Positions 9,135 to 21,307 of a stretch of 64,000 nucleotides of DNA are shown here, in pieces. The translations under genes and the position numbers were made by a program. The notes beneath the pieces are model-generated. The model made no database searches and was not told the DNA's origin. It worked only from the letters and a program-made list of their open reading frames with translations. Origin of the DNA: a virus; the IMG/VR virus record IMGVR_UViG_3300035703_000022, positions 74,530 through 138,529 of that record; one strand, given 5' to 3'. Position 1 is the stretch's first letter. Each line of letters starts with the position of its first letter.

Positions 9135-9159
9135 GACGGACAGTTCGGTTTCTGTCCTA

Positions 9160-9232
9160 TGCTCCTTGCGTGGATCGAACACGCCTCAGGCGAATTATGA
9201 GTTCGCTGCATTCACCAGATTGCTAAAGGAGC
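9160..9232 (-). tRNA. tRNA with CAT anticodon (probably tRNA-Ile2, otherwise Met)
   Basis: Cloverleaf; acceptor GCTCCTT/AAGGAGC; anticodon arm GCGAA-CTCATAA-TTCGC. Confidence 0.85.
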
Positions 9233-9236
9233 AAAG

Positions 9237-9308
9237 TAGGACTGGAGGGAATTGAACCCTCTTCACACCGTTATAAGCAGTGGGCCTTAACCAATAGGCG
9301 ACAGTCCC
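9237..9308 (-). tRNA. tRNA-Ile(TAT)
   Basis: Cloverleaf; anticodon arm CACTG-CTTATAA-CGGTG. Confidence 0.9.
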
Positions 9309-9323
9309 GCAAAATACAAGTCA

Positions 9324-9352
9324 ATTATAGAGGACTTGGAACTCTTTGTCAA
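9324..9352 (-). promoter_or_regulatory. consensus sigma70 promoter
   Basis: Minus strand TTGACA-N17-TATAAT directly upstream of tRNA-Ile(TAT). Confidence 0.8.
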
Positions 9353-9522
9353 GAGGCTTCGTTATTTAACTCTGTGTATATGCGTATAAGTTCGTCATCT
9401 GCAGGGATCATAACTGCCGTTTGTCCTTTTTCGTTAATTATACCTATACTCTCTCCATTTTCAACTCTATCAATCATTTCTTCCCAGCGTTTTTGGAACT
9501 CTTGCACTGTGTAGATTTTCAT
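9349..9522 (-). CDS. Phd/YefM-like antitoxin-fold small protein
   Basis: MKIYTVQEFQKRWEEMIDRVENGESIGIINEKGQTAVMIP resembles the Phd N-terminal pattern; late promoter TATAAATA at 9531-9538. Confidence 0.6.
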   Translation of the reverse strand: MKIYTVQEFQKRWEEMIDRVENGESIGIINEKGQTAVMIPADDELIRIYTELNNEAS

Positions 9523-9540
9523 AGTTTTTATATTTATAAA

Positions 9541-9614
9541 TCGGGCATGAGGGATTTGAACCCCCGACATCCTGCTCCCAAAGCAGGCGCGCTACCAAAC
9601 TGCGCTAATGCCCG
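9541..9614 (-). tRNA. tRNA-Pro(TGG)
   Basis: Cloverleaf; anticodon arm CCTGC-TTTGGGA-GCAGG. Confidence 0.92.
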
Positions 9615-9634
9615 ATTACTAGTATATAGTAACA

Positions 9635-9793
9635 CTAATGATCCTTTTTGTCAAATGGCTGCCAATGTTGCCAGTTATACTTGTGAATTGCCCAGATACC
9701 CATGATAGGCAAAACAACTAAGAGATATCCAATAATACCTAATGTATAAGGATTTTCAAGTACCCATCGTGCAAAATGTGTCATCAGTTTCAT
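9635..9793 (-). CDS. small single-TM protein (52 aa)
   Basis: Manual translation MKLMTHFARWVLENPYTLGIIGYLLVVLPIMGIWAIHKYNWQHWQPFDKKDH; ATGA overlap with the previous ORF. Confidence 0.6.
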   Translation of the reverse strand: MKLMTHFARWVLENPYTLGIIGYLLVVLPIMGIWAIHKYNWQHWQPFDKKDH

Positions 9794-9876
9794 TGTGGAT
9801 ATGCGTTATGAAGACCCCAGTAAATAAAGGTCGCAATAGAACTAAAAAGTAAAAGTGAAGATATAAGTGTGTGCAT
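9790..9876 (-). CDS. micro single-TM protein (28 aa)
   Basis: MHTLISSLLLFSSIATFIYWGLHNAYPQ; coupled by TAATG and ATGA overlaps. Confidence 0.5.
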   Translation of the reverse strand: MHTLISSLLLFSSIATFIYWGLHNAYPQ

Positions 9877-9998
9877 TACATTCCTCCGTTTCTAAATCCG
9901 ACTATGTAACCGATAATGAGCCCACACATAAAGGAAACAAACATATACAAAATGTGAGAAACAAATTCAATAAAAATTAACCAATCAGTCGTCGTCAT
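9876..9998 (-). CDS. micro single-TM protein (40 aa)
   Basis: MTTTDWLIFIEFVSHILYMFVSFMCGLIIGYIVGFRNGGM; overlaps both neighbours. Confidence 0.5.
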   Translation of the reverse strand: MTTTDWLIFIEFVSHILYMFVSFMCGLIIGYIVGFRNGGM

Positions 9999-10092
9999 CG
10001 TCTTCATAAGTAGATGGTTCTTCAAAGAGTTCTTCCATTTTTTGATGCAAAACTCTTTCTTGCAGTTCTTTTAAATCGTCCTCTGTGATCAT
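9985..10092 (-). CDS. micro acidic protein (35 aa)
   Basis: MITEDDLKELQERVLHQKMEELFEEPSTYEDDDDD; ATGA overlap. Confidence 0.5.
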   Translation of the reverse strand: MITEDDLKELQERVLHQKMEELFEEPSTYEDDDDD

Positions 10093-10268
10093 TTGTCCTT
10101 TAAAAGTTCTTCGATTCTTTTACGCATATTTGTACTATCTTGTTTCATATAGTCACGAATAGAATAACCACGTTGATTTCTCAGAATGCATGTTCCTTGA
10201 TAAAACATTGTGGCAGCAAATACTAACAACAACACAATACCAATTATTTCAGGGTAATGTTGAGCCAT
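10089..10268 (-). CDS. small single-TM protein (59 aa)
   Basis: MAQHYPEIIGIVLLLVFAATMFYQG...KRIEELLKDK. Confidence 0.55.
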   Translation of the reverse strand: MAQHYPEIIGIVLLLVFAATMFYQGTCILRNQRGYSIRDYMKQDSTNMRKRIEELLKDK

Positions 10269-10447
10269 GGTAGTACAGGTGGAATAACGCCTATAAGTCT
10301 CAACAATCCTTCAGCAAATAAAGCAAGGACAACCCAACCAACGCACATACTAATAATGGAAGCATTCCGATTGTGCCTTCGTATAGCAGCATCAATCATC
10401 TCCTGAACTTCAGAACGTGTAATAAATTCTTCCTGTTCGTGCATCAT
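10244..10447 (-). CDS. small membrane protein
   Basis: 67-aa ORF with a C-terminal hydrophobic segment; ATGA coupling. Confidence 0.65.
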   Translation of the reverse strand: MMHEQEEFITRSEVQEMIDAAIRRHNRNASIISMCVGWVVLALFAEGLLRLIGVIPPVLPWLNITLK

Positions 10448-10593
10448 TTCTCATCTCCAAGAAATTTTGCTAAAGGATCTCTCCTTGTTTTTACAATTTC
10501 AACTGCTCTTTTATAGAACATATTATCAGTGTTACCAGAGGTTTCAAAAGTTGCCTTGATCTTCACCCAATTATCATAGGTACGATCGTCCAT
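10444..10593 (-). CDS. hypothetical cyanophage protein (49 aa)
   Basis: Manual translation MDDRTYDNWVKIKATFETSGNTDNMFYKRAVEIVKTRRDPLAKFLGDEK; first ORF of the coupled string. Confidence 0.6.
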   Translation of the reverse strand: MDDRTYDNWVKIKATFETSGNTDNMFYKRAVEIVKTRRDPLAKFLGDEK

Positions 10594-10707
10594 ACTGCCA
10601 TTGAATTGTACATAATTATATACTAATCACGGAAGCTCTAAAGGCAACCTTATGTGTTCAACTCGTAACACTCATTAAGTAATAATTAAATTTGTAGTAA
10701 TTTTAAA

Positions 10708-10792
10708 CGGAAAGGAGAGGATTCGAACCTCCGGATGCTTTCACATCGACTGTTTTCAAGACAGTTGCCTTAAACCACTCGGCCACCTTTCC
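10708..10792 (-). tRNA. tRNA-Ser(TGA)
   Basis: Cloverleaf with long variable arm; loop CTTGAAA. Confidence 0.92.
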
Positions 10793-10795
10793 ATA

Positions 10796-10884
10796 CGGAG
10801 AATGTTGGATTCGAACCAACGGAGAAGTGTAAACTCCTCAAGAACTTAGCAGGTTCCCGCCTTAAACCACTCGGCCAATTCTCC
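10796..10884 (-). tRNA. tRNA-Ser(GCT)
   Basis: Cloverleaf with long variable arm; loop CTGCTAA. Confidence 0.92.
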
Positions 10885-11135
10885 TATCGGATTTCAAAAT
10901 CCAGTTTACGAACTTTACGGGCTCGTCTGGACTCTTGGAAAGCAAGTTCAGATGGACTGAATAGACTATCTTTCTTATTTTCCTTTATTGAGTTTAACAT
11001 AACAACTTGATTTAGGTCAACAGCAGTGATAGTGTCTCCCTTTACAAGTGTCATATTATCACATCCACAACATACTGATTTTGTTGGATGCGACTCCAAC
11101 TCGGTGTTACACACCTTACATCTTACTTTTAACAT
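10884..11135 (-). CDS. zinc-ribbon-like hypothetical protein
   Basis: CKVC...CCGC cysteine pattern. Confidence 0.65.
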   Translation of the reverse strand: MLKVRCKVCNTELESHPTKSVCCGCDNMTLVKGDTITAVDLNQVVMLNSIKENKKDSLFSPSELAFQESRRARKVRKLDFEIR

Positions 11136-11151
11136 TGTTCAATACCGTAAA

Positions 11152-11673
11152 TTAATCTTCAGTTGTTTCTTCTATTTGAATTTCAGGTTCTTCTTGTTCT
11201 AGAGTTTCTTCAACTTCTTCTTTTGCGAGTCCTGGAGAGGATTCAAGATAAGATCTTAACATCCAAACAAATTTTCCGTGAGACTCATTTAGATCATCTG
11301 CAAGATTTGAAGTTGCTCTGGACTTCTGAGCATCTGCTTCCTCAGCAACTTCAGTAAATAAATTACACAGATCTTGATTTGATTTTAACAGATCTCTAGC
11401 CATTTTATGACAATCTGTTGTACTTTGTCCAGTTTTTACTTTGGAAACTTCTACAATTCTCTCTAAACTATTAAGTGGTTTTACATTTAAAAATCTCATG
11501 TGTTCGGAGATACGATCAATCTCTTCAAACATGGTTTCATACTGATCACCAAAGAGAGTATGAAGTTGTGGAAAATCTTCCCCTACTACATTCCAATGAT
11601 AAGCCCAAGTCTTATGAAATAAGACAAAGAGAGACGCTTGTGCATCACTTAGTAGTTTAAAAAGTTTTTCCAT
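11152..11673 (-). CDS. dps: Dps family ferritin-like DNA-protection protein
   Basis: HWNVVGEDFPQLHTLF...DRISEH ferroxidase motif and a K..WML motif; acidic C-terminal extension. Confidence 0.88.
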   Translation of the reverse strand: MEKLFKLLSDAQASLFVLFHKTWAYHWNVVGEDFPQLHTLFGDQYETMFEEIDRISEHMRFLNVKPLNSLERIVEVSKVKTGQSTTDCHKMARDLLKSNQDLCNLFTEVAEEADAQKSRATSNLADDLNESHGKFVWMLRSYLESSPGLAKEEVEETLEQEEPEIQIEETTED

Positions 11674-11704
11674 TATACCAAAATACTTTAGAAGTATTTA
11701 TTAA

Positions 11705-11776
11705 TGGGAAATATCGGATTCGAACCAATGACTTACTGCTTGTAAGGCAGTCACTCTACCGCTGAGTTAATCTCCC
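11705..11776 (-). tRNA. tRNA-Val(TAC)
   Basis: Cloverleaf; ACTGC-CTTACAA-GCAGT. Confidence 0.92.
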
Positions 11777-11779
11777 GAG

Positions 11780-11850
11780 AGCGGGTAACCGGATTTGAAC
11801 CGGTGAGAACAACTTGGAAGGATGTCATGTTACCGCTACATCATACCCGC
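11780..11850 (-). tRNA. tRNA-Gly(TCC)
   Basis: Cloverleaf; acceptor GCGGGTA/TACCCGC; loop CTTCCAA. Confidence 0.9.
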
Positions 11851-11890
11851 TTATATACCAATCATAAACTATTTAAGTTTGATTGGCAAG

Positions 11891-11973
11891 TGCTCCAGAG
11901 AAGATTTGAACTTCCACGCTTTTTAAGGCGGCGGATTCTAAGTCCGCTGTGTCTACCGTTCCACCACTGAAGC
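11891..11973 (-). tRNA. tRNA-Leu(TAG)
   Basis: Cloverleaf with variable arm; GCGGA-CTTAGAA-TCCGC. Confidence 0.92.
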
Positions 11974-11977
11974 TAAT

Positions 11978-12125
11978 GAGTAGTGAGTGCCCACCACTCG
12001 CGGAAGACACTCTCCGCAACTAACGGGGGTGATCAAATCCCCGACCTAAGAAAACTTAGGATTTAGTGAGTCGGATATGATGATCCCGACTCGTATGAAA
12101 GACCCGAACATTTCCAGACCTTTCA
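11978..12125 (-). ncRNA. multi-hairpin structured RNA between tRNA-Asn and tRNA-Leu (possibly manA-like motif)
   Basis: Six hairpins and two possible loop-loop pairings in about 150 nt (see findings). Confidence 0.7.
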
Positions 12126-12126
12126 A

Positions 12127-12199
12127 CTCCCCCACCTGGACTCGAACCAGGAACCCCAGAGTTAACAGCTCCGTGCTCTGCCAATTGAGCTATAAGGGA
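12127..12199 (-). tRNA. tRNA-Asn(GTT)
   Basis: Cloverleaf; CGGAG-CTGTTAA-CTCTG. Confidence 0.9.
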
Positions 12200-12202
12200 A
12201 TG

Positions 12203-12277
12203 TGGTGGCGGGGGGAGGAATTGAACCTCCTTCCTGAAGCTTATGAGACTTCTGTGCAACCGTTACACTTCCCCACG
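12203..12277 (-). tRNA. tRNA-Met(CAT), initiator-like 1:72 mismatch, CCA encoded
   Basis: GAAGT-CTCATAA-GCTTC; acceptor CGTGGGG/CCCCGCC followed by ACCA. Confidence 0.85.
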
Positions 12278-12280
12278 ATG

Positions 12281-12334
12281 ATGGATTAAGTGTGATACAC
12301 CTCATAAGGATGTAACAGGGACTTAACCTCTATC
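12281..12334 (-). ncRNA. leader hairpin with AUG-containing loop
   Basis: GGTTAAGT/ACTTAATC, TG/CA and TACATC/GGTGTA stems with loop CTTATGA, between a promoter and tRNA-Met. Confidence 0.6.
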
Positions 12335-12341
12335 AATGTAT

Positions 12342-12370
12342 ATAGTAACAAACTTTTGTAAGTTTGTCAA
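12342..12370 (-). promoter_or_regulatory. sigma70-like promoter inside the tRNA array
   Basis: Minus strand TTGACA-N17-TACTAT. Confidence 0.75.
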
Positions 12371-12371
12371 G

Positions 12372-12445
12372 CGTCCTCTGCAAGATTCGAACTTGCGACT
12401 TCTTGGTTCGTAGCCAAGCACTCTGGTCCACTGAGTTAAGAGGAC
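12372..12445 (-). tRNA. tRNA-Arg(ACG)
   Basis: Cloverleaf; CTTGG-CTACGAA-CCAAG. Confidence 0.92.
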
Positions 12446-12449
12446 AAGG

Positions 12450-12520
12450 CGAAGGATGAGGGACTTGAACCCCCACTAACGGTTTTGGAGACCGTCGTGC
12501 TACCATTACACCAATCCAAC
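12450..12520 (-). tRNA. tRNA-Trp(CCA) with two acceptor-stem mismatches
   Basis: ACGGT-CTCCAAA-ACCGT; acceptor GTTGGAT/ATCCTTC. Confidence 0.8.
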
Positions 12521-12524
12521 AAGG

Positions 12525-12597
12525 TGTCCGTGAGAGGATTCGAACCTCTAACACCTACCCCCTCAAGATAGTGCCTCTTCCATTGGGCTACACGGAC
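12525..12597 (-). tRNA. tRNA-Leu(GAG) with short variable loop
   Basis: CTATC-TTGAGGG-GGTAG; 5-nt variable loop. Confidence 0.8.
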
Positions 12598-12671
12598 TGG
12601 CTGAGAAACTAGGACTCGAACCTAGATAAACTCCTTCAAAGGGAGGTGTCCTACCATTAGACGATTTCTCA
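12598..12671 (-). tRNA. tRNA-Gln(TTG), CCA encoded
   Basis: Cloverleaf; loop CTTTGAA; U1-A72. Confidence 0.9.
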
Positions 12672-12676
12672 ATAGG

Positions 12677-12752
12677 AGTTCAGGGTGGGATTCGAACCCA
12701 CGGTGATAGAAGTTTTGCAGACTTCTGCATTCGACCACTCTGCCACCTGAAC
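12677..12752 (-). tRNA. tRNA-Cys(GCA)
   Basis: GAAGT-CTGCAAA-ACTTC; U73. Confidence 0.92.
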
Positions 12753-12756
12753 TAAG

Positions 12757-12828
12757 AGCCCTCAGTCGGATTTGAACCAACGACCTACTCATTACTAGTG
12801 AGTTGCTCTACCTCTGAGCTATAAGGGC
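12757..12828 (-). tRNA. tRNA-Thr(AGT)
   Basis: ACTCA-CTAGTAA-TGAGT. Confidence 0.9.
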
Positions 12829-12830
12829 GG

Positions 12831-12901
12831 GGTGTCGTGAGGGAATCGAACCCTCATATAGAGAACCACAATCTCCTGTCTTACCATTAGACTAACGACA
12901 C
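12831..12901 (-). tRNA. tRNA-His(GTG)
   Basis: GGAGA-TTGTGGT-TCTCT; C73. Confidence 0.9.
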
Positions 12902-12902
12902 A

Positions 12903-12974
12903 AGGCAGTGGGTAGAATTGAACTACCGACATAGAGGGTATGAATCTCTTGTTCTACCACTGAACTACACTGCC
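12903..12974 (-). tRNA. tRNA-Met(CAT), elongator-type
   Basis: Acceptor GGCAGTG/CACTGCC; loop TTCATAC. Confidence 0.85.
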
Positions 12975-12978
12975 AAAG

Positions 12979-13050
12979 TGGAACCGACAAGATTTGAACT
13001 TGTGACCGCTCGGTTATCAGCCGAGTGCTCTACCGCTGAGCTACGATTCC
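12979..13050 (-). tRNA. tRNA-Ile(GAT)
   Basis: CTCGG-CTGATAA-CCGAG. Confidence 0.92.
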
Positions 13051-13054
13051 AGAG

Positions 13055-13128
13055 AGGGAACAATCGGATTTGAACCGATAACACCATGATCTTCAATCAT
13101 GTGCTCTACCAATTGGAGCTATGTTCCC
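13055..13128 (-). tRNA. tRNA-Phe(GAA)
   Basis: CATGA-TTGAAGA-TCATG. Confidence 0.9.
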
Positions 13129-13131
13129 AAG

Positions 13132-13205
13132 TCCAGATGAAAGGATTTGAACCTCCGACAACTCCGCCCCAAACGGAGGGCTCTACCAAACTGAGCTACA
13201 TCTGG
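13132..13205 (-). tRNA. tRNA-Pro(TGG), second copy
   Basis: CTCCG-TTTGGGG-CGGAG; C1-G72, A73. Confidence 0.9.
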
Positions 13206-13206
13206 T

Positions 13207-13281
13207 TGGTATTCCTAACGGGATTCGAACCCGTGCTGCCACCTTGAAAGGGTGGTGACCTAACCGCTAGTCGATAGGAAC
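13207..13281 (-). tRNA. tRNA-Glu(TTC), CCA encoded
   Basis: CCACC-CTTTCAA-GGTGG. Confidence 0.92.
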
Positions 13282-13478
13282 TTGATGGGAGGGGTATCCC
13301 ACACGAAGTCACTTATGGATTACGCTTCGTAGCCTTATGAATCCTGCCATCATCCGATGGTGGTTAGAAATCCCTCCCCAATTCCAGTTCTTGCTACGTC
13401 ATTCCTTACCTAACTGGCAACATTCAGGATGACGTGCTACAACCGCCAAGGAGGGACACTCCATCAGCAGCGTAGCAA
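13282..13478 (-). ncRNA. unknown two-domain structured RNA between tRNA-Asp and tRNA-Glu
   Basis: Long-range stems TTGCTACG/CGTAGCAA and GGGAGGG/CCCTCCC, internal hairpins and a possible pseudoknot. Confidence 0.65.
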
Positions 13479-13552
13479 CGACCCATACGGGATTCGAACC
13501 CGTGATCTCCACCGTGACAGGGTGGCGTGATAATCCTCTACACTAATGGGTC
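13479..13552 (-). tRNA. tRNA-Asp(GTC)
   Basis: CCACC-CTGTCAC-GGTGG. Confidence 0.92.
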
Positions 13553-13556
13553 AAGG

Positions 13557-13638
13557 TGGGAGGAACAGGATTTGAACCTGTGAAGGCAGAGCCGTCTGAT
13601 TTACAGTCAGATTCCTTTAACCACTCGGAAATCCTCCC
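13557..13638 (-). tRNA. tRNA-Tyr(GTA)
   Basis: TCTGA-CTGTAAA-TCAGA; variable arm present. Confidence 0.92.
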
Positions 13639-13642
13639 ACGA

Positions 13643-13714
13643 TGGGACATCTCGGATTCGAACCGAGGACTAACCGGTTAAAAGCCGGATACTCTACCGC
13701 TGAGTTAATGTCCC
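13643..13714 (-). tRNA. tRNA-Lys(TTT)
   Basis: CCGG-CTTTTAA-CCGG. Confidence 0.92.
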
Positions 13715-13830
13715 AAAGAATTAAATTTTCAAGGTTCGGAGTGTGGTCTCTCTCGACCACTTGGCTAGAATACCACCGTTTGATCTCTGGAGGGAGGTTG
13801 GTGGACACTTAGAAAACTGTCACAGACAAC

Positions 13831-13867
13831 AAAAAAGGGGAGGAAACTTTTTGGTTTCTCTCCCCTT
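13831..13867 (-). terminator. intrinsic terminator
   Basis: Minus strand AAGGGGAGAGAAAC...GTTTCCTCCCCTTTTTT. Confidence 0.7.
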
Positions 13868-13892
13868 CTTTTGCTTTTATGAATTAAACATC

Positions 13893-13991
13893 TTACATAT
13901 GTCTATCCATATCCGCAAACAGGGGAGTACCCTCAATATGCCAATAGCGGCAATCGAGAATAGTAAACTGTTTGGGCATTGGATAAGACAT
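13893..13991 (-). CDS. 32-aa peptide in its own late transcription unit (or an sRNA)
   Basis: MSYPMPKQFTILDCRYWHIEGTPLFADMDRHM; TATAAATA promoter upstream, terminator downstream. Confidence 0.45.
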   Translation of the reverse strand: MSYPMPKQFTILDCRYWHIEGTPLFADMDRHM

Positions 13992-14012
13992 TGTTTTCGA
14001 CCTAAGTGTTTT

Positions 14013-14020
14013 TATTTATA
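14013..14020 (-). promoter_or_regulatory. T4-type late promoter
   Basis: TATAAATA on the minus strand. Confidence 0.65.
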
Positions 14021-14043
14021 AGACTTTTTTGTTTAAAAGTCAA

Positions 14044-14116
14044 CAGGCACGGCTGGACTCGAACCAGCAATCGGCAGCTTAGAAGGCTGATGCATTATCC
14101 ATTATGCTACGTGCCC
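14044..14116 (-). tRNA. tRNA-Arg(TCT)
   Basis: CAGC-CTTCTAA-GCTG; own TTGACA-N17-TATGAT promoter at 14125-14153. Confidence 0.9.
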
Positions 14117-14153
14117 ACAAGACAATCATACCATTAAAAGGTCGGATTGTCAA

Positions 14154-14240
14154 CGGAGAAAGAGGGATTCGAACCCTCGGTGAAGTTACCCCCACACAGA
14201 CTTTCCAGGTCTGCTCCTTAAACCACTCGGACACCTCTCC
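14154..14240 (-). tRNA. tRNA-Ser(GGA)
   Basis: CAGAC-CTGGAAA-GTCTG; long variable arm; TTGACA-N17-TATAGT upstream. Confidence 0.92.
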
Positions 14241-14300
14241 ATATTTAGACTATAGAATGGGGGAGGAATATTGTCAACCCCTCCCTCCTATTCTATTGTA

Positions 14301-18850: not shown

Positions 18851-18957
18851 TATTTCTTTTTACCTCCATTCTTTGCCTTTTTGGCAGTAGCGTTACCTTG
18901 ATTTTGTTTTTTATTTCCAGAAGAACCTTTTTTACCTTTGTTAGCAGACTTTGACAT
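18850..18957 (-). CDS. Lys-rich basic peptide (35 aa)
   Basis: MSKSANKGKKGSSGNKKQNQGNATAKKAKNGGKKK; TGATG coupling with AGGAG SD. Confidence 0.55.
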   Translation of the reverse strand: MSKSANKGKKGSSGNKKQNQGNATAKKAKNGGKKK

Positions 18958-19379
18958 CAGAGGTCTCCTCTTTGGAATGGTTTTTCTTCATCAACTTTCG
19001 CTTCAAGAGCTTCCACTCTTTCCTCAAGTGAGGTATCACCATATCCAGTATCAACTAAAGGCAATTCTTCAGTTGCTTCCTGAGCTGGTTCTTCCCAAAG
19101 TGGCATTCTTTCTGTAGTTGGAGGTTCTGGAGGTGATTCTACAAACTCTTCTCTCTTTGGTTCTGATTTTTTATCATCATCATCATCACCTTTCTTCATG
19201 GTATTAATACCAAAAGTGGCAGCAGACGCGGTAAAAACCGTCGCAATGAATGTTGGGTCCATCTTAGATAACATACCAGCATAACTTGCAGTAAGTAGTG
19301 CAGCAGCCCAACCAAGAATAGCAACACGGATCACAGTGTTCATACATGCCTCTCTTTTTTTAGTCTTGTTGTTGTCCAT
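18957..19379 (-). CDS. two-TM membrane protein with acidic tail (holin candidate)
   Basis: Two hydrophobic helices; directly downstream of the lysozyme. Confidence 0.55.
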   Translation of the reverse strand: MDNNKTKKREACMNTVIRVAILGWAAALLTASYAGMLSKMDPTFIATVFTASAATFGINTMKKGDDDDDKKSEPKREEFVESPPEPPTTERMPLWEEPAQEATEELPLVDTGYGDTSLEERVEALEAKVDEEKPFQRGDL

Positions 19380-19400: not shown

Positions 19401-19946
19401 TTAACCTTTTTTCCAAGCTTCACCTTCTGCTTTTCTCCTACGTGCAAGTCCTGCTTCTACATTTGAACCAGGATTTCTATAGAGATAAAGCGCATCGGGA
19501 ACTAGATCCCACTCTTTATTCTTCAGGCGTTTAGTAATAGTATTAAAGTTATCGCCACCGTAAAAACCGGCACCAAGATTATAAGCAAAGCTGAGCAAAG
19601 CGCCTCTTTTTCCATCTGACATTTCATTCCAGTGTGGGATCTTACGAAGTGCAGGAAGGAATTGATTCTTGCACTGACTGATTAACAGTTCATCCGCTTC
19701 TTGCTGGGTGATATTATCACCCATTTGAAATGGTTGGCCATTCTTATTTCTAGTAGAACCCCAACCAATTGTGATTGGCAGACCACCAGTTAAAGGATCA
19801 GGATATGCCGATAAATGACATCCTTCAAATTCCTTGATTAACTTAATGCCCATCATTGGGACATCATCACTACCACTTGCGACAGCAGGAGCAGAAGCAC
19901 CACTGCCGCTATTTACTTTCCCAAAGATTTGCCACAGTGAGGGCAT
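19401..19946 (-). CDS. GH24 lysozyme (endolysin) domain, probably expressed by -1 frameshift from 19913-20143
   Basis: IKEFEGCHLSAYPDPLTG...TIGWGST...SFAYNLG...GLARRRKAE. Confidence 0.9.
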   Translation of the reverse strand: MPSLWQIFGKVNSGSGASAPAVASGSDDVPMMGIKLIKEFEGCHLSAYPDPLTGGLPITIGWGSTRNKNGQPFQMGDNITQQEADELLISQCKNQFLPALRKIPHWNEMSDGKRGALLSFAYNLGAGFYGGDNFNTITKRLKNKEWDLVPDALYLYRNPGSNVEAGLARRRKAEGEAWKKG

Positions 19947-20143
19947 ACATCACCGGAAGGTGCCGCAGAAGGACTAGATGAACCAGAAGAAGACTTCTTA
20001 CCTCTGTAAATTTCAGCCCATTCAGCACTATCATTAAGTACATCATTTGGAAAATTATCTTCCATCCATTGTACTGCTTTCACATGATTTGGATTTCTAT
20101 CGTCGTAGAACTTAAAAAAGTTGTGTAGATCTACTCTTGCCAT
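19913..20143 (-). CDS. 76-aa DLHNFFK-domain protein, N-terminal partner of the lysozyme
   Basis: GGAG SD before ATG 20143; homologous to the N-terminus of the neighbouring C39 protein; ends G GGA AAG TAA. Confidence 0.75.
   Translation of the reverse strand: MARVDLHNFFKFYDDRNPNHVKAVQWMEDNFPNDVLNDSAEWAEIYRGKKSSSGSSSPSAAPSGDVCPHCGKSLGK
19916..19922 (-). promoter_or_regulatory. putative -1 ribosomal frameshift slippery site GGGAAAG
   Basis: X XXY YYZ heptamer in frame before the stop; stem-loop 6 nt downstream; the -1 frame is the lysozyme. Confidence 0.7.
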
Positions 20144-20157
20144 TTGTTGTTCTCCTA

Positions 20158-20829
20158 TCAATCGAAAATACGACCCCAACCATCGTTACCGCCTGGGTTC
20201 CAACGATGCTTAAGAACTGCTTTGGTGTAAATGGTCTTCTTACCATTCGTAACTGGACCACTATAGTTATCGTTTAGAGAACCATATGGGTCATTAACAT
20301 AGTATCCTTTGCCATCTGGTGTCTTACCAATCACTACACACATGTGACCACCAGTAGGATTAGATAAAGAGCCGCGATGTAGGATGCCGATAACGACAGG
20401 TTTCCCAGCATCAAGACTCTTATCAATGTCAGCAAAAGAAAGATTGTAACTAAAGTGTGACTTAACACCATAACCTGCCAGAACTTTCGTCTGTACGGCA
20501 TGATCAGTTGTATCACCGATTGCAAATACTTTCTTAACATACTCATCATCGCCTTTAATGCTTCCTGGTTTAAGGAATGCAAGACACATAGCACATGAAG
20601 AACTGTTACAAGTTCTATGTGCATCTCTGTAATTATCTACTTGATTGAAGTATGGAACATCTAAAACTGCTGGTACAGGAGGAGCAGTTCTAAAAATACT
20701 TACCCAATCAGATTGAGAATCATCTAAAAATTTTTCTGGAAGATTATCTTCTAGCCACTGTACTGCCGCTACATGATTGGCATTTTTATCATCATAATAC
20801 TTAAAAAAGTTATGAAGATCTAGTGTCAT
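20158..20829 (-). CDS. peptidase C39-like protein with N-terminal DLHNFFK domain
   Basis: LDVPYFNQ...CNSSSCAM...GGHMCVVIG...VNDPYG (Q, C, H, D residues). Confidence 0.85.
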   Translation of the reverse strand: MTLDLHNFFKYYDDKNANHVAAVQWLEDNLPEKFLDDSQSDWVSIFRTAPPVPAVLDVPYFNQVDNYRDAHRTCNSSSCAMCLAFLKPGSIKGDDEYVKKVFAIGDTTDHAVQTKVLAGYGVKSHFSYNLSFADIDKSLDAGKPVVIGILHRGSLSNPTGGHMCVVIGKTPDGKGYYVNDPYGSLNDNYSGPVTNGKKTIYTKAVLKHRWNPGGNDGWGRIFD

Positions 20830-20878: not shown

Positions 20879-21307
20879 TTAATTAAAATTGCCATAATCT
20901 GCTCTCATATATCGTCCTAAAATATTACTATTGTAGTATAATGGGATTCCATCTCCAAGAGATTCTTTCAATACATTATTTAGAAAAAGTTGTCTAGTTT
21001 CTTCATAATTACAGCTCATTTTTGTATCATGAAGACTCAAAATAACTCTATTAAAAATTTCTTTTCCAAATTTCTTTACATCATCTTTCAATTCAAAACA
21101 GGAACCGTAATATTTTTTCCAATCAGATTCTTGCTTTACTTTTCTTTTCTTACCCGGTGGTTTTCTATAAGACCAAAAATACTTTCTACCAATATACTTT
21201 CTACCGTTGGACTGATTGGTAATAAGATAAACAAACCCAAAGTTGTTTTCTATATTATCAGAATCAAAAATTTGGCCATTAAATGTCCAAGGGTTCTCAT
21301 AACTCAT
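20879..21307 (-). CDS. GIY-YIG family endonuclease
   Basis: GFVYLITN...YIGRK, YYGS and YYNSNI motifs. Confidence 0.8.
   Translation of the reverse strand: MSYENPWTFNGQIFDSDNIENNFGFVYLITNQSNGRKYIGRKYFWSYRKPPGKKRKVKQESDWKKYYGSCFELKDDVKKFGKEIFNRVILSLHDTKMSCNYEETRQLFLNNVLKESLGDGIPLYYNSNILGRYMRADYGNFN

Follow-up and report, generated by a model that had tools for sequence, protein, structure and literature searches.

How does a cyanophage make its lysozyme when the catalytic domain of that enzyme lies in a different reading frame from the short gene that precedes it? The question is raised by a 64,000-nucleotide stretch of viral DNA (hereafter the window), part of a single 138.5-kb contig whose closest named relatives are Synechococcus myoviruses of the Kyanoviridae. 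In the window, a 76-aa open reading frame (ORF) ends on a slippery heptamer and a GH24 lysozyme continues in the -1 frame. We observe this layout, its conservation in relatives and a co-varying stem downstream of the heptamer. Together they point, with high probability, to a real programmed -1 ribosomal frameshift inside a cyanophage endolysin gene.

Two reading frames and a probable slip site between them

The features of the locus are collected in Table 1. The 76-aa ORF is composed of an N-terminal module, a Ser/Gly linker and a CPHCGKSLGK tail. Its ATG (20143-20141) is preceded, 8 nt upstream, by AGGAG at 20156-20152, and its 3' end reads ...TCT TTG GGA AAG TAA on the minus strand. The heptamer at this end stands in the 0-frame register X_XXY_YYZ, which is that of a canonical bacterial -1 frameshift site, and reading on after a -1 slip gives GGG AAA GTA AAT AGC GGC..., or GKVNSGSG.... 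The -1 frame is free of stops from 19949 to 19401, overlaps the slip site and encodes the PF00959 domain; an ORF of 181 aa with its own ATG (19946-19401) occupies this same frame. The predicted fusion is 76 + 171 = 247 aa long. An earlier sequence-only reading had described a 76-aa ORF ending TTG GGA AAG TAA, a -1 slip at 19916-19922 into the GH24 frame, a Ser/Gly/Ala linker ahead of the catalytic domain and a domain-lysozyme fusion of about 247 aa, and the sequence, the register and the Pfam match bear out this layout.

Table 1. Features of the endolysin locus, in window coordinates
Feature	Position	Strand	Basis or remark
Upstream paralogue: N-terminal module in frame with Peptidase_C39_2 domain	20829..20158	minus	ORF list, Pfam
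Short 0-frame ORF, 76 aa + TAA	20143..19913	minus	ORF list, sequence
N-terminal module, residues 1-50	20143..19994	minus	Alignments; also heads the adjoining C39 peptidase gene
CPHCGK motif	19945..19928	minus	Only in cassette-bearing alleles
Slippery heptamer G_GGA_AAG, X_XXY_YYZ register	19922..19916	minus	First G is third codon base
-1 frame from slip site to stop: Ser/Gly/Ala linker + GH24 lysozyme	19922..19401	minus	171 residues after Lys76
0-frame stop TAA directly 3' of heptamer	19915..19913	minus	TAA or TAG in all relatives
Hairpin, 6-nt spacer after heptamer, likely frameshift stimulator	19909..19879	minus	-18.9 kcal/mol
GH24 catalytic domain, residues 38-174 of 181-aa ORF	19835..19425	minus	PF00959 match
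VNSGSGASAPAVASGSDDVP			Lysozyme-frame peptide upstream of MM codons, joined to ...SLGK in the predicted fusion

The FEG...AYpD...TIGwG string of the lysozyme aligns with solved lysozymes, and we take its Glu, Asp and Thr to be the catalytic positions. Pfam Phage_lysozyme (PF00959) matches the 181-aa ORF at 78.8 bits against a cut-off of 22.3, over the full profile (1-125), and the closest solved relatives of the domain are the phage lysozymes 9kbq, 6et6 and 2anv (PDB).

Counting both strands, the 138.5-kb genome has 11 copies of GGGAAAG. By our own arithmetic, the chance of finding it in register within a frame overlap of about 12 codons is about 7e-4, and that of finding any X_XXY_YYZ heptamer there is about 5%. 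The sequence itself appears secure: contigs from three DNA runs of three studies, one of which may itself be the source of the window, span 19841-20186 with 0 differences and 0 gaps, and a fourth contig, a diverged one, shows nothing but substitutions where it runs across the heptamer. No insertion or deletion was found near the slip site among the DNA-run contigs that span the region. RNA contigs (run X15) span 19401-19709 only, ending short of the slip site.

Conservation of the site and of its hairpin

Relatives were collected first by lysozyme similarity, with 80 viral contigs examined of at least 598 that encode a lysozyme relative. These comprise 63 in-frame fusions, 16 loci with the split layout and 1 contig without upstream sequence. 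At all 16 split loci, which were chosen without reference to any motif, the lysozyme lies in the -1 frame, GGGAAAG stands in register with TAA or TAG directly 3', a hairpin begins 7 nt past the heptamer, and ahead of the heptamer stands the peptide (D/E/S)(V/A)CPHCGK(S/P)LGK, with the surrounding linkers diverging freely. A second scan searched for the CPHCGK-x-LG coding motif and left the last four bases of the heptamer free. Viral contigs yielded 38 loci. Of these, 37 belong to this gene, each of them reading GGGAAAGTA, and the remaining one is a zinc-ribbon gene with no relation to it. For metagenome contigs, 80 loci were examined among the matches listed, 25 of them this gene, and every one of the 25 carries GGGAAAG followed by TAA (14) or TAG (11); some of these contigs are the same as contigs of the viral collection, so that the two counts are not additive. 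The sequence-only reading had proposed its own check, the conservation of GGGAAAG, the stop and the -1 register in homologues, and this was borne out at 16/16 split loci, 37/37 viral loci and 25/25 metagenome loci among the matches listed. The CPHC tail is covered by no GenBank phage record among 50,697, a set from which the record of the window itself may be missing.

The codons of the heptamer are also held constant. In 40 unique cassette variants its Gly is GGA (40/40) and its Lys AAG (40/40), whereas at a comparison Gly and Lys four codons upstream all four Gly codons are used and Lys is AAA in 37 and AAG in 3. Site and register are conserved, and synonymous change is suppressed at the site, as would be expected where ribosomes shift. 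Leu ahead of the heptamer is encoded by CTG or TTG alone, a restriction that the scan pattern itself demanded.

A hairpin follows the heptamer, and here the sequence-only reading was right in part. It had placed a stem GCGGCAG/CTGCTGT 6 nt downstream; the start position holds, but the minimum-energy partner of the GCGGCAG 5' arm is CTGTCGC, so that the proposed pairing was 3 nt out of register. The first pair falls at +7 in 22/22 unique viral variants, within the 5-9 nt downstream at which a stimulatory structure is looked for, although stability alone discriminates only weakly. Across 33 unique variants the 7 outer stem pairs are canonical in 231/231 cells, a table in which each 3' arm was anchored on the minimum-energy fold of its own sequence. 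Pairs 2-7 each occur as two or three canonical pair types, with double changes, and the stem is found fully swapped (GCGGCAG/CTGCCGC, GGGCAGC/GCTGCCC, GGACAGC/GCTGTCC and GGGCAGT/ACTGCCC). The observed pairing was reached by 0/1000 column shuffles. Sliding the stem register by 3 still leaves pairs in 78% of cells, since the linker is triplet-repetitive.

In stability, the hairpin stands only modestly above background. Taken alone, that of the window has z = -1.8, and 13/200 shuffles fold equally well; 39/40 real sequences pass the hairpin criterion compared with 18.5% of mononucleotide shuffles, and the median best 40-nt window is -21.1 kcal/mol in the cassette against -16.5 kcal/mol in in-frame linkers. 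The argument from the hairpin therefore rests on its fixed position and compensatory changes, not on its stability. MAFFT with RNAalifold did not recover the stem and returned a meaningless 4-pair structure, because the loop lengths differ. A covariance model built on 13 equal-length hairpins was set aside, as it aligned the other stem classes poorly and gave 17 off-target matches, and no pairs were counted on it. There is no Rfam match in 19780-20020.

Starts for the lysozyme and explanations other than slippage

Might the lysozyme instead be translated by itself? In a split gene, the 76-aa ORF and the lysozyme would be translated separately, the latter from ATG 19946 or from the MM codons (ATG ATG, at the start of the catalytic domain), some 66 nt past the heptamer, and the heptamer would be idle. 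The MM codons are present in 21/23 unique variants, many cyanophage genes are said to have no strong ribosome-binding site, and the window does have ATG 19946, with only GGTGA upstream, which the sequence-only reading had considered a possible independent start. That caution is weakened by the comparison with relatives, where an equivalent of ATG 19946 is found in only 4/23 unique variants and two variants (L086 and L103) also have no MM codons; ahead of its catalytic Glu, L086 lacks any ATG, and L103 has the upstream one only. There is no conserved alternative start shared by all variants, and in 11/23 of them a stop two codons ahead of the heptamer closes the lysozyme frame, which thus opens just 6 nt before it. 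The MM codons are equally conserved in in-frame fusions, in which they are internal residues. Separate translation would also leave unexplained the invariant GGA and AAG codons, the fixed position and compensatory changes of the hairpin, and the -1 register, which is kept at every cassette locus, whichever search found it, over six lengths (72-90 nt) of the spacer between heptamer and catalytic domain.

A second junction bears on the same point. In phage S-PM2 (AJ630128.1, about 116130-116780; L277:1150-1800), the ORF p153, an N-terminal module joined to a C39 peptidase, ends GCA AAA AAG TAA. The GH24 frame is -1 to p153 and open from just upstream of the junction, and up to the catalytic Glu it contains none of ATG, GTG and TTG. 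What the record calls 'putative lysin' is no more than a C-terminal fragment of 72 aa. A lysozyme frame without any start codon is not accounted for by a split gene. The same arrangement recurs in 17/17 S-PM2-like viral loci (S-PM2 and 16 others, L278-L294), with A_AAA_AAG in register and followed by a stop, either at once or after one further codon. Of 15 unique variants, 11 have a hairpin beginning 4-7 nt downstream, and in several of these hairpins the 5' arm covaries with a 3' arm made up of the codons for GVEL, GVDL or GVAL. The S-PM2-type junction thus resembles that of the window in its -1 register, in a heptamer at or one codon before the stop, in a downstream hairpin and in a GH24 domain without its own start, but it differs in the heptamer (A_AAA_AAG), in its upstream partner, which is the whole N-module-C39 peptidase, and in having no CPHCGK. 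Other than by frameshifting, it is difficult to see how two heptamers and two upstream partners should lead to one and the same lysozyme, and we consider a split gene improbable.

Termination followed by reinitiation appears less probable still, to the point of being very unlikely. Ribosomes would stop at TAA 19915-19913 and restart at the downstream MM codons, coupling the two products without fusing them, and it is true that the stop is always present and that MM lies 54-69 nt downstream in 21/23 variants. However, a restart distance of that length is long for bacterial coupling, a stable hairpin stands between the stop and MM, L086 and L103 have no ATG after the heptamer, and the invariance of the heptamer codons and the kept -1 register would go unexplained. 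Hardly credible at all is the view that the arrangement reflects an error of sequencing or assembly, or that it is an in-frame endolysin decaying as a pseudogene, which could appeal to the short homopolymer runs in the heptamer, to the existence of in-frame relatives and to L113 (IMGVR_UViG_3300047562_003796), the only one of the 37 cassette contigs with a frame-breaking deletion in the lysozyme domain (after ...IPHWNE, and perhaps an assembly error or a defective variant), but which is countered by the same arrangement in 37 viral contigs, by contigs of three runs and three studies with 0 gaps, by two frames that are both open and conserved, and by a difference from the in-frame alleles that consists of a cassette about 47-74 nt longer and not of a single-base indel. 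In-frame homologues combined with an indel at this site had been named by the sequence-only reading as grounds for abandoning the frameshift; such homologues do exist, but it is the whole cassette that they lack, and the three DNA runs contain no indel.

Modules, cassette history and comparison with known systems

If the lysozyme is reached by frameshifting, what would the two products share? The N-terminal module is modelled by AlphaFold as a small helical unit (pLDDT 80-95 over residues 1-50) with a disordered tail; an earlier run on a shallow alignment had been poor (pLDDT 57.8). Its fold has no solved counterpart in our searches, the best Foldseek match having E = 9.5 and VIA-align with the module model returning no chain at Z >= 2 among 48,161. 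No Pfam family matches the 76-aa ORF, and its PHROG matches are to endolysin families only. The module profile finds only 77 representatives among 1.84 billion proteins. Of 23 longer module proteins scanned, 18 carry GH24, Peptidase_C39_2, Peptidase_M15_3 or glucosaminidase domains, 4 have no Pfam match, and P0165 has only matches in which no stretch passes alone. The module therefore looks like an accessory of peptidoglycan hydrolases and, since it is seen only beside peptidoglycan hydrolase domains, may serve in wall binding or targeting. At the N terminus of more distant lysozymes (L301-L353), an in-frame stretch (…LDLFKYYKALPHQMAAL.ELE…) resembles a divergent version of the module.

The CPHCGK motif is invariant in 12 unique short ORFs that were found without it (that of the window and 11 from the loci), and the codons inside it vary synonymously. 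As the motif scans were ascertained on CPHCGK, its invariance counts only in the 16-locus set. Neither CxxC nor CPHCGK occurs in the first 120 residues of any of the 120 best in-frame homologues; CPHCGK, heptamer, stop and hairpin thus travel together. We take the CPxCG of the short ORF to resemble a zinc-knuckle half-site, and the off-target matches of the CPHCGK scan are zinc-ribbon genes. With one half-site per chain, the sequence suggests pairing between chains.

How the cassette came to be in some alleles can be approached through close relatives that do without it. In the Synechococcus phage isolates DSL-LC02 and DSL-LC03 both domains lie in one in-frame ORF of 222-223 aa, joined by an Ala/Pro linker. 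The N-terminal module is 76% identical to that of the window over 50 aa and the GH24 domain 91-93% identical, but CPHCGK, heptamer, stop and shift are all missing, and their linker is shorter than that of the window by 71-74 nt. In a tree built on the flanking domains (L003-L082), cassette alleles do not form one clade (AU p = 0.01 against a single clade) and require at least 3-4 changes, with the frameshift alleles L025 and L055 sister to the in-frame L079. The linker is a recombination or indel hotspot, and the cassette has either moved by recombination or undergone repeated loss; a second copy or source of it was found nowhere in the phage's own 138.5-kb genome. Directly upstream of both wall-hydrolase genes lies a SegE-type GIY-YIG homing endonuclease gene (PF19835, E = 4e-52; 20879-21307, minus strand), which may have driven the exchange of alleles that the tree shows. 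Most alleles are in frame and do without the cassette, so that a second product is not indispensable.

We propose the following course of events. Ribosomes would start at ATG 20143 and make the N-terminal module, followed by the Ser/Gly linker and the tail CPHCGKSLGK. Once GGA occupies the P site and AAG the A site, most would go on to the adjacent TAA and release the 76-aa protein, whereas a minority, stalled by the hairpin 6 nt downstream, would slip back by one base (GGA to GGG, AAG to AAA) and pass through the Ser/Gly/Ala linker into the GH24 lysozyme, giving the 247-aa fusion. Terminating and slipping ribosomes on one message would thus yield a non-catalytic short form and the full enzyme. 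Both the occurrence and the rate of slippage are inferred. The ratio of short to long form would presumably be fixed, limiting the dose of lysozyme and supplying free N-terminal module, and the free short form may work together with the long one.

Two features of the surrounding genome deserve mention in their own right. A cluster of 26 tRNA genes occupies 9159-14241 on the minus strand. It includes tRNA-Gly(UCC) (11779-11850) and tRNA-Lys(UUU) (13641-13715), which would decode and re-pair on G_GGA_AAG; in a near-complete tRNA set, their presence may be a coincidence. Directly downstream of the lysozyme (18957-19379, minus strand) is a gene for a DUF6450 protein of 140 aa. This protein has a single hydrophobic segment, at its N-terminal end, and its tail is acidic; it may be a holin- or spanin-like membrane partner in lysis.

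More tentatively, and with the balance of probability against it, one can imagine that the cassette of about 60 nt (CPxCG knuckle, G_GGA_AAG, stop and hairpin) is a portable recoding module that converts a one-product endolysin into a two-product one. The zinc half-site carried by both forms would pair short and long chains through a shared metal site and so determine how many wall-targeting modules there are for each catalytic domain. Taken with the S-PM2 junction at A_AAA_AAG, this would mean that T4-like cyanophages in general set the stoichiometry of their lysis enzymes by frameshifting, a trait so far unrecognised.

Among tailed phages, most known cases of programmed -1 frameshifting concern tail chaperones and capsid genes. 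Full-text searches, which took in few subscription journals, gave no account of frameshifting in the making of a lysis enzyme, and the words 'endolysin' and 'lysozyme' are absent from the first 300,000 characters of the 2016 recoding review (PMC5009743). The PRFect paper lists 'lysins' and cites Shearman et al. 1994 for the lysin of phage phi-vML3; according to PMC3111421, that case concerns a lysin and a holin-like protein from overlapping genes and not a fusion. If the frameshift is real, lysozymes are wrongly annotated in dozens of genomes of environmental cyanophages and in the model phage S-PM2, where they are entered as a short 'hypothetical protein' with a truncated lysin, or else as a fragment of 72 aa. 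Lysozyme dose and free N-terminal module would be tied to each other at translation, offering a new handle on lysis timing in abundant aquatic viruses, and close alleles with and without the cassette would amount to a natural experiment on selection for a fixed ratio.

Several known systems resemble the proposed one in part. Clostridial and enterococcal lysins add free binding domains by internal initiation. In mycobacteriophage Ms6, one lysin gene, LysA, gives a full-length enzyme and a shorter form, Lysin384 and Lysin241 (PMC3111421). The Ms6 form arises from an in-frame internal start and is the C-terminal part, whereas here the extra product would be N-terminal and made by termination, and it is the enzyme that would need recoding. 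The insertion sequence IS911 makes a short N-terminal product and a catalytic-domain fusion from one message. OrfA/OrfAB of the IS3 family (IS911) and dnaX of E. coli further share with the window an A_AAG-type bacterial heptamer and a 3' stem-loop stimulator, and stem-loops are described as stimulating dnaX-type shift sites (PMC5009743). These differ from the window in that their sites are A_AAA_AAG and their products a transposase or a polymerase subunit, and in that the shift product of dnaX is the shorter one.

A further parallel is the gpG/gpGT pair of phage lambda, which reportedly uses exactly G_GGA_AAG, a finding credited to Levin et al. in 1993. According to the recoding review, G_GGA_AAG is highly shift-prone in E. 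coli and serves as the g-t shift site of the archaeal virus HCTV-5, and the gpG:gpGT ratio in lambda is 30:1 (PMC5009743). The lambda and window arrangements agree in topology, with a short 0-frame product terminating immediately past the slip site and a shift product, predicted in the window, that is extended at its C terminus. The proteins themselves are unrelated, and lysis in a T4-like phage takes the place of tail assembly. With no Pfam family and PHROG matches to endolysins alone, the 76-aa ORF would work like G/GT without being a member of the lambda G/GT tail assembly chaperone family, and in contrast to lambda its slip site is accompanied by a conserved 3' hairpin and an adjacent stop.
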